From Escherichia phage Mu: DNA of 3,128 bases. Made by a program: the position numbers and the translations under genes. The notes beneath the pieces were generated by a model. That model was not told the DNA's origin, searched no databases, and saw only the letters and a program-made list of their open reading frames with translations. Each line of letters starts with the position of its first letter. Position 1 is the stretch's first letter. Below are positions 1 through 3,128 of this stretch, in pieces. The stretch lies in sequence record AF466696.1; one strand, given 5' to 3'.

Positions 1-40
1 TTATCCAAAACTCGGTTTACAGGAAACGGTAAATCAGGCT
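1..40. repeat. Left terminal inverted repeat; nt 1..25 is a Gin/Pin/Cin-type crossover site that is 1 bp short (TTATCCAAAAC-TC-GGTTTACAGGAA)
   Basis: Identical to the reverse complement of 3088..3128 except for one missing C in the outer half-site. The site has internal dyad symmetry (TTATCCAAAACC versus reverse complement TTCCTGTAAACC) around a central TC dinucleotide, as in hix/gix sites as I recall them. Confidence 0.85.
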
Positions 41-1019
41 AGGAACGCCGTGCAAAAGAATGGCGATACCTTGTCCGGTGGGCTTACTTTTGAAAACGAC
101 TCAATCCTTGCCTGGATTCGAAATACTGACTGGGCAAAGATTGGATTTAAAAATGATGCCGACAGCGACACTGATTCATACATGTGGTTTGAAACAGGCG
201 ACAACGGCAATGAATATTTCAAATGGAGAAGCAAACAAAGCACCACAACAAAAGACCTGATGAATCTTAAATGGGATGCTTTGTCTGTTCTTGTCAATGC
301 CATTGTAAATGGCGAAGTCATATCAAAATCAGCAAACGGCCTCCGTATTGCTTATGGTAATTACGGATTCTTTATTCGTAATGATGGTTCAAATACATAC
401 TTCATGTTGACAAACTCCGGTGACAACATGGGGACTTATAACGGATTAAGGCCATTATGGATTAATAACGCTACTGGCGCTGTTTCGATGGGGCGTGGTC
501 TCAATGTTTCAGGGGATACACTTTCACACCGTTTTGCTATTAACAGCAGTAATGGTATGTGGATTCAGATGCGCGATAACAACGCTATCTTTGGGAAAAA
601 TATAGTTAACACTGATAGCGCTCAGGCGTTGCTTCGCCAGAATCACGCCGACCGCAAATTTATGATTGGCGGTCTGGGAAATAAGCAATTTGGCATCTAC
701 ATGATTAATAACTCAAGGACAGCCAATGGCACCGATGGTCAGGCGTACATGGATAATAACGGAAACTGGTTATGCGGTGCTCAGGTCATTCCGGGAAATT
801 ACGCCAACTTTGACTCCCGCTACGTGCGTGACGTTCGGCTGGGAACTCAGTCACTGACTGGCGGCTTGTCTCGTGATTACAAGGCGACATCCGGTCATGT
901 TATTACAGGTTTTCATACCAATGGCGACTGGGAAATGCAGGGGAGGGGATGACAAAGTTTATATCCGTCCGGTTCAGAAGAATATCAATGGTACCTGGTA
1001 TAATGTAGCGAGCGCCTGA
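2..1019 (+). CDS. stf: Side tail fibre protein, variable C-terminal (receptor-binding) module A; 5'-partial (constant part lies upstream of the window), with an apparent frameshift near the 3' end
   Basis: The frame is open from nt 2 through the left crossover site ([33 protein letters not shown]...) to TGA 950..952, 317 codons; the ORF-track entry 50..952 is the GTG-initiated part of it. Composition is Gly/Asn/Thr/Ser-rich, typical of fibre distal domains. A conserved fibre tail [23 protein letters not shown] is encoded 948..1019 in another frame and ends 2 nt before the tfa ATG, so the body is cut off at 952. Confidence 0.8.
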
Positions 1020-2114: not shown

Positions 2115-3126
2115 TTAAATACTCCCCGCGTTATACCACGTTCCATTAATGCAATACTGAATTGGCCTTGCCTGAATTGTATCAATTAATTCATCACGGT
2201 TTCCGTTACTGAACCCGTAACGACATAACCTGACCTGTCAGACCAGCCGGGACCATTCCATGTCTGAACAGATGACAGACCGCCAAGACGAATACCTGTA
2301 ATAAACCTTGAGTTACATTCTGCCTGCGTATATGCACCAACATCTCCCGCTGATGGCTTACGTGTTGTGGTGTAAATTTCTGACCAGTCAGCTTCGAATC
2401 CGTAACCATCACGCGCTGAACGATAAAAAATACCGCCGTTCCTGTAATTCACACGGCTGTACGGCAGGGCAACTCCCCGTATTCATATTGAAGTGGAGGA
2501 TTAATGTCGGCAGGGCAACTCCCCGTATTCATATTGAAGTGGAGGATTAATGTCGATGCGCCACCAATATTTGCGTTATAGACCCCGCTATTCCAGTTCC
2601 AGCCAACAGCTTTATCATTTCCGACAGTGCTTCCTGTTTGTCCTAAAGCAAATGCAGGCTGCTGGTTTTTCGTGTTGTAGTCTCGTCGCCAGCCAGGAGC
2701 ATAAGCATCACCATGATTAATATAAGTGAATTGAGCGTTAGTGATTCCGCCGCCGCTGGACGTACTCGGCGTAGTAACGCGTATGGTCATTGCGCCGCGA
2801 GTGCCAATAACTTCCACCACAGCACCTGCATGACAAATATTTCCGCAACCTGTATCTGTAATGACCTTATTGTTTGCATAAGCCCATGAGCCTTTGCACA
2901 TCCAGTAAGGATGGTTAAATGCCCCCTGACTCTCCAGCCACGAAATAAATTGTGCGGTTGTCCAGACCTGACTATCGCCACCAATATTCAGCCATGCGCT
3001 ATATGCGCGACAGGCCCCAATATTTTTGGTGAAGGTATCTTTTCCTGGAATATCTGCGCCGTTCTGGTTTTGCTGTAATGCGCCAGAAGCCTGATTTACC
3101 GTTTCCTGTAAACCGAGGTTTTGGAT
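2115..3126 (-). pseudogene. stf: Side tail fibre protein, variable C-terminal module B; 5'-partial on the - strand (would join the upstream constant part after inversion), disrupted by a 46-bp tandem duplication and frame changes
   Basis: On the - strand the frame is open from 3126 through the right crossover site ([81 protein letters not shown]..., continuing as ORF 2449..2901) to TGA at 2449..2451, 226 codons. Coding continues in a second frame as ORF 2186..2452 (NYRNGGIFYRSARDGYGFEADW...SGYVVTGSVTETVMN*). The conserved fibre tail ..[23 protein letters not shown] is in a third frame, ending with TAA at 2115..2117. Confidence 0.8.
2462..2555. repeat. Perfect direct tandem duplication, 2 x 46 bp (units 2464..2509 and 2510..2555) plus 2 flanking matching nt, inside stf-B
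   Basis: GCAGGGCAACTCCCCGTATTCATATTGAAGTGGAGGATTAATGTCG occurs twice back to back with 100% identity. On the - strand the two copies are read in different frames (..TLILHFNMNTGSCPA then DINPPLQYEYGELPC), and the frame stops at 2449 shortly after. Confidence 0.95.
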
Positions 3127-3128
3127 AA
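3088..3128. repeat. Right terminal inverted repeat; nt 3103..3128 is a full-length 26-bp crossover site (TTCCTGTAAACC-GA-GGTTTTGGATAA)
   Basis: Reverse complement is TTATCCAAAACCTCGGTTTACAGGAAACGGTAAATCAGGCT, matching nt 1..40 with one extra C. It shows the 12-2-12 half-site architecture typical of serine DNA invertase sites. Confidence 0.85.

Follow-up and report, generated by a model that had tools for sequence, protein, structure and literature searches.

A Perfect 46-nt Tandem Duplication in a Phage Mu G-Segment Record: Most Likely an Artefact of the Sequence Record

Introduction

The orientation of the invertible G segment of phage Mu determines whether the S and U or the S' and U' genes are expressed, and hence which hosts can be infected (PMC4406740; PMC11915804). 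The window analysed here, which is the whole 3,128-nt stretch of DNA taken from the sequence record AF466696.1, contains a perfect tandem repeat of 46 nt that interrupts one of these genes. The question raised by this locus is whether the second copy arose in the DNA of a phage, a clone or a prophage, or during the compilation of the record itself. A first-pass annotation of the sequence had left both origins standing, that is, either recent slippage or duplication, or an assembly artefact.

Identity and Layout of the Window

The window aligns over 100% of its length with positions 31954-35037 of phage Mu (NC_000929/AF083977), with an identity of 98.6%, and a substitution identity of 99.3%. 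It matches segments in eleven complete Escherichia coli genomes equally well, including that of E. coli W, in which the copy of the segment does not differ from the Mu reference. The Mu record annotates the matching stretch as the invertible G segment, with the boundaries of G falling within the terminal repeats, and places gin immediately outside it, while the window stops exactly at both crossover sites. The window is, then, the invertible G segment of phage Mu, from gix to gix, in the G(+) orientation. The growth of Mu on E. coli K-12 requires S and U (PMC4406740) and uses the G(+) fibres only, with S' being dispensable in this host (PMC4406740; PMC11915804).

The Mu record places S (gp49, variable part) and U (gp50) on one strand, with U' (gp51) and S' (gp52, variable part) on the opposite one. 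Both of these convergent gene sets are present in the window, the DNA of which is colinear with gp49-gp52 of Mu, although all four reading frames are interrupted. The Pfam matches on the Mu proteins are to Gp34_trimer and Phage_fiber_2, Caudo_TAP (twice), and gp37_C. Given that the window is the Mu G segment, with its known gene map, the gene named "stf-B" in the first-pass annotation is S', the G(-) tail-fibre gene. The features of the window are as follows:

1-40, + strand: left inverted repeat with the gix-L crossover site, lacking one C in comparison with both Mu and the right arm of the window
1-1019, + strand: Sv, variable C-terminal region of S (gp49), the tail-fibre gene of G(+), aligned to Mu 31954-32972
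1022-1552, + strand: U (gp50), G(+) tail-fibre assembly protein; the Mu U protein matches Pfam Caudo_TAP
1558-1577, either strand: G+C-rich, terminator-like hairpin between the convergent U and U' genes, from a terminator scan
1581-2112, - strand: U' (gp51), G(-) tail-fibre assembly protein, colinear with Mu
2115-3128, - strand: S'v, variable C-terminal region of S' (gp52), the tail-fibre gene of G(-), with three breaks
3088-3128, - strand: right inverted repeat with gix-R, identical to Mu

The hairpin at 1558-1577 (AAGGCCCGCTATCGGGCCTT) has eight pairs, six of them G-C, and was scored as terminator-like on the - strand; rho-independent terminators are annotated on both strands at the equivalent site of D108. 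An 80-nt inverted repeat (1194-1273 against 1867-1946, 70% complementary) was rejected as a separate structural element, as it stems from U and U' being paralogues encoded on opposite strands.

The terminal inverted repeats are approximately 34 bp in length (7-40 and 3088-3121) and are 97% complementary. The left crossover site reads TTATCCAAAAC-TCGG, with one C missing between positions 10 and 11, while the right arm reads AAAACCTCGG. The loss of this C is private to the window, with no match in IMG/VR; if it were real, the spacing of the gix-L half-sites would be changed, and inversion by Gin would probably be blocked. In addition to the frame breaks in the four genes, three small changes are found in the left inverted repeat. 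At positions 34-40, the left arm of the window (TCAGGCT) is the reverse complement of the right arm at 3088-3094, whereas the left flank of Mu has CAGGGCT. With this match, immediately interior to the 34-bp repeat, the inverted repeat of the window extends to about 40 nt, and reads of the left and right arms may have been mixed during compilation.

The Duplication and the S' Reading Frame

Only one tandem array was detected in the window by Tandem Repeats Finder, at 2462-2555, with a period of 46, 2.0 copies, 100% matches, no indels, and a score of 188. A second repeat search recovered the same two copies, head to tail and 100% identical, so the perfect double unit reported in the first-pass annotation is correct in both its description and its coordinates. 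The repeat is located in S'v (the variable part of gp52, the tail-fibre gene of G(-)) and is composed of:

2462-2507: copy 1 of the 46-nt unit, which encodes ...STLILHFNMNTGSCPA on the - strand
2508-2555: copy 2 of the unit (2508-2553), together with a 2-nt CG microhomology

The match runs on for these two nucleotides (2554-2555) because the unit and its downstream flank both begin with CG. At the junction of the two copies, GGAGGATTAATGT is followed directly by CGGCAGGGCAACTCC. The coding region of the unit falls inside a gp37_C-type domain (Pfam match, residues 168-261 of the annotated 328-aa S'). By arithmetic, rather than shuffling, the probability of a perfect 46-nt tandem arising by chance in 3.1 kb is of the order of 3000 x 4^-46, and chance does not explain the repeat.

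On the - strand, the frame that enters from the right crossover site is that of Mu S' as far as ...GSCPA. Beyond this point, it continues through the second copy in 19 out-of-frame codons (DINPPLQYEYGELPCRTAV), and then reaches a stop at 2449-2451. Retranslation thus agrees with the earlier statements that a unit whose length is not a multiple of three shifts the frame, and that the open reading frame coming from the right crossover site ends at this stop. If the duplication were present in the DNA, S' would end after approximately residue 206 of its variable part, with the loss of about 116 C-terminal residues, and the G(-) particles would lack working fibres.

The deletion of one copy in silico restores only ...GSCPAVQ before the frame breaks again, as the first-pass annotation had calculated by hand. 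This deletion and retranslation, which had been proposed there as a check, located the residual breaks at two points:

2456-2457: 2-nt loss in comparison with Mu ("AA" on the + strand, "TT" in the coding strand of S', within the V-Q-F codons), 5 nt from the repeat
2207: 1-nt loss (A) in comparison with Mu, which shifts the last 31 or so codons of S'

The same annotation had deduced at least one more 1-nt indel nearby. The nearby break is real, although it comes from the deletion of 2 nt, which is equivalent to a 1-nt insertion as far as the frame is concerned. When "AA" is put back following the removal of the copy, the frame is open as far as 2207, and when all three lesions are undone, a 322-codon S'v is recovered, with 320 of its 322 residues identical to Mu. 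Compensating frameshifts in S' were considered and rejected: the three lesions sum to +43 (+46, -2 and -1), which is not a multiple of three, so that they do not cancel.

Copy Number in Relatives and Databases

In an alignment with Mu, the identical prophage of E. coli W, D108, D6, P88, P1, and two E. coli prophages, no second copy of the unit was found in any of these sequences, and the "AA" missing at 2456/2457 is present in Mu, D108, P1, D6, P88, and the two E. coli prophages. Nor is there more than one copy in any of the eleven E. coli genomes whose segment is identical to that of Mu. When copies were counted in 55 related loci that were fetched for this purpose, with a threshold of eight mismatches, exactly one copy was found in 54, and two copies in none; the P1 locus was the one that fell below the threshold. 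The comparison with homologues suggested in the first-pass annotation came out as predicted there, with the relatives carrying a single copy in an intact frame, and no homologue being found with two copies in an intact frame.

A 70-nt query spanning the junction had no contiguous match in 5,426 complete E. coli genomes, 50,697 phage records, and 72,556 plasmids; it returned two-piece hits only, in which both halves collapsed onto the same 46-52 nt of each record. A 28-mer from the junction had no exact match in the GTDB species representatives, IMG/VR, or the JGI metagenome contigs, while the positive controls were recovered from IMG/VR, with the Mu-type left flank in 20 contigs and the single-copy right junction in 31. 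The collections searched omit many non-representative genomes (most of those of Shigella, for example) and old partial GenBank records.

At the protein level, the S' protein of PDB 8JU3 (crystal structure of Mori et al. 2024, as cited in PMC11915804) is the single-copy reference sequence, and is identical across residues 163-488. The products of two window-specific open reading frames (88 aa, 1022-1288; 150 aa, 2449-2901) had no exact match in an index of 153 billion genes, which is consistent with a unique record, without constituting proof of one. A protein word search with a 48-aa peptide spanning the junction returned no candidates, even though the first 29 residues of this peptide are those of Mu S'; as these residues ought to have been found, this negative is uninformative, and, judging by this query, negatives of the word search for short queries are unreliable. 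In the literature text searched, which does not include the Mu genome paper (doi 10.1006/jmbi.2002.5437), neither an older sequence of the Mu G segment nor a statement on its errors was found.

Other Differences from Mu

The duplication is only one of many differences between the window and Mu. The window is 44 nt longer than the 3084-nt Mu reference stretch, which is accounted for by the 46 nt of the duplication and the 2 nt lost beside it, with the remaining small indels cancelling one another. In all, there are 23 substitutions and 17 indel events, including the duplication, which is a ratio of 0.74, and no indel has a length divisible by three. These indels break all four genes, leaving none intact:

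S: extra G at 940; the open reading frame at 50-952 stops early, and that at 873-1019 has the true C-terminal frame
U: extra bases at 1254, 1317 and 1473; the gene is split into open reading frames at 1022-1288, 1288-1548 and 1454-1552
U': insertions at 1707, 1829, 1864 and about 1883, with 2 nt missing at 1959 and 4 nt (GTGC) missing at 2107
S': breaks at 2207 and 2456/2457, and the duplication

This wider context, of 17 indels and four broken genes, was missed by the first-pass annotation, the sequence statements of which on the duplication hold nonetheless.

Every indel and most of the substitutions are private to the window in an alignment of nine sequences. At the private columns of the window, seven relatives match Mu, despite differing from it by 5-10% elsewhere. 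In the conserved block at Mu 32998-34669, the relatives (93-95% identity) have 0-6 gap events and a gap/substitution ratio of 0.00-0.06, whereas the window (99.0% identity) has 13 gap events and a ratio of 0.76. The private losses of "AA", "GTGC" and the left-gix C had no matches in the collections scanned. Counted from the alignment with Mu, the insertions (11 events, including the duplication) outnumber the deletions (6 events). Natural bacterial pseudogenes have a much lower number of indels per substitution, with deletions predominating.

The substitutions are also unevenly distributed between the strands. On the + strand, G>A outnumbers C>T by 11 to 1 (p=0.006), mostly as AG>AA, irrespective of which strand is coding, and the eleven G>A differences are located in 956-2176, in genes on both strands. 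This excess suggests a bias in the reading of one strand, and not a mutational process. Approximately 30 of the 39 or so difference events, as counted from the alignment, lie within 940-2207, and this clustering, together with the G>A bias, fits an uneven quality of reads from one strand. To the right of 2207, apart from the loss at 2456/2457 and the duplication, there is a single difference, a substitution at 2831, and none beyond it.

The single-base insertions mostly double an adjacent base in runs of 1-3. At 887, 956 and 989, the window differs from Mu, and yet agrees with several or all of the other relatives; at 989, for example, T is found in the window and in six relatives, and C in Mu and E. 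coli W. The differences at these three positions may be true polymorphisms of the sequenced stock, and not errors.

Origin of the Duplication

The reading that best accounts for these data, to which we assign a probability of roughly 80%, is that of an error-laden record, in which two overlapping pieces appear to have been butt-joined, with the overlap kept twice. The duplication is most likely a record error because no other sequence examined has it, and because it is accompanied by sixteen other private, frame-breaking indels. A record error is recognised by private, function-destroying changes in a unique record, and such changes were found here, including in S and U, which are needed genes. 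The indel/substitution ratio, the excess of insertions, the one-strand bias, and the breaks in S and U all fit sequencing of uneven quality, rather than evolution. The artefact is nevertheless inferred rather than demonstrated, and the same applies to both the butt-joining mechanism and the kind of sequencing.

Under this reading, two overlapping pieces, either gel reads of restriction fragments or contigs, would have been joined with their 46-nt overlap untrimmed, and the 2-nt omission found 5 nt away would be part of the same bad join. It fits this reading that the omission is so close to the repeat in a right-hand third of the window that is otherwise nearly free of errors. An RsaI site (GT^AC) is found at 2459-2462, just ahead of copy 1, and a TaqI site (T^CGA) at 2553-2556, so that the duplicated unit is the RsaI-to-TaqI interval to within 1 nt. 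In a simulation with 13 common four-cutters, the chance of both ends lying so near to cut sites was about 2.4%, although this comparison was made post hoc, with a self-chosen set of enzymes, and the coincidence is no more than suggestive. The untrimmed overlap of two assembled contigs would look the same as a join of restriction fragments.

The duplication does require a different type of error from that of the other 39 or so differences, because the misreading of bases cannot make a 46-nt repeat, and, to our knowledge, there is no read-level error mode that yields a perfect duplication of this length. Nanopore-type error is not favoured as the source of the indels, as the insertions mostly extend runs of 1-3 bases, and not long homopolymers. 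The CG microhomology at the boundaries counts against an artefact, in that it also fits real slippage or illegitimate recombination, although identical head-to-tail copies with such a microhomology could come from an artefact as well.

The main alternative, which we consider unlikely, is that the DNA used for sequencing (a Mu stock, a cloned G fragment or a prophage) did carry the duplication, which would have arisen by slippage or unequal exchange at CG and knocked out S', while the other differences are sequencing errors. The perfect head-to-tail copies and the 2-nt microhomology at their boundary are what would be expected of a recent event. A real lesion of S' could also persist, because S' and U' are unselected when Mu is grown on K-12, where S' is dispensable and only the G(+) fibres are used (PMC4406740; PMC11915804). 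Set against this are the absence of the junction from every collection searched, the single copy in 54 of the 55 related loci, and the suggestive coincidence of the boundaries with the RsaI and TaqI sites. Of the 17 private indels, moreover, the duplication alone would have to be real; given that there are sixteen others, one of them only 5 nt away, the prior probability of any private indel being real is low. There is, accordingly, only a small chance of a real and recent 46-bp duplication in one Mu stock or clone, which would have abolished the G(-) host range and left G(+) growth intact. Such an event would represent the silent decay, during laboratory passage, of the unselected half of a host-range switch.

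It is less probable still that the window in its entirety represents a genuine Mu-type prophage in decay, with four fibre pseudogenes, and that the duplication is one true lesion among many. Four broken genes and a damaged left gix might suit a locked, decaying element, and the databases searched hold few Shigella-type genomes, which are rich in pseudogenes. The indel/substitution ratio of 0.74, however, contrasts with the 0.00-0.06 of the natural relatives in the conserved block, the excess of insertions (11 against 6) runs opposite to the deletion bias of bacterial pseudogenes, and the 11 to 1 bias of G>A towards one strand also argues against decay. With a substitution identity to Mu of 99.3%, there would have been too little time for 17 indels to accumulate, and neither these indels nor most of the substitutions are shared with the relatives.

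A programmed variant, in which the two-copy state is functional, as a slippage on/off switch of S' or an alternative form of the fibre, is suggested only by the fact that a host-range gene contains a tandem repeat, and is effectively refuted: there are just two copies of a unit that is not a multiple of three, the product is truncated with 19 junk residues, the adjacent 2-nt loss leaves the S' frame broken with either one or two copies, and no variation in copy number was found in 55 related loci or thousands of genomes.

Of the two origins put forward in the first-pass annotation, then, the artefact is favoured over slippage by the unique junction and the sixteen other private indels. The four genes and one crossover site of the window differ from every other known copy in ways that resemble record errors, and the G segment of AF466696.1 is unsuitable for inferring pseudogenisation, the evolution of the fibre genes, or variation in the gix sites. 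The significance of the duplication is mainly one of quality control. A real duplication would amount to an ordinary null mutation of S', of local interest only, and would make no open question testable.

Comparison with Known Systems

The window shares with the Mu G segment its inverted-repeat ends, with their gix sites, and the order and orientation of Sv, U, U' and S'v. It differs from this segment by 44 additional nucleotides, 17 indels, 23 substitutions, and a left gix with one base less. The G segment of D108, the C segment of P1, P7 and D6, P88, SfMu, and the Mu-type prophages of E. coli have homologous U, U' and S' C-terminal regions, with an identity of 90-95%. Unlike the window, they have a single copy of the 46-nt unit and intact frames.

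In comparison with tandem duplications produced by slippage, the window has the same perfect copies and a 2-nt CG microhomology at the junction, but differs in having no independent occurrence, and in the position of the repeat among evident record errors. With artefacts of joining or compilation, it shares the perfect head-to-tail copy, the uniqueness to one record, and the small error alongside, with boundaries that may correspond to fragment ends (RsaI and TaqI), although in the window such an artefact is identified by its context and by the lack of the duplication in other sequences. The element represented in the window is a textbook Mu G segment, and the duplication is best classed, most likely, as not being a real feature of it.
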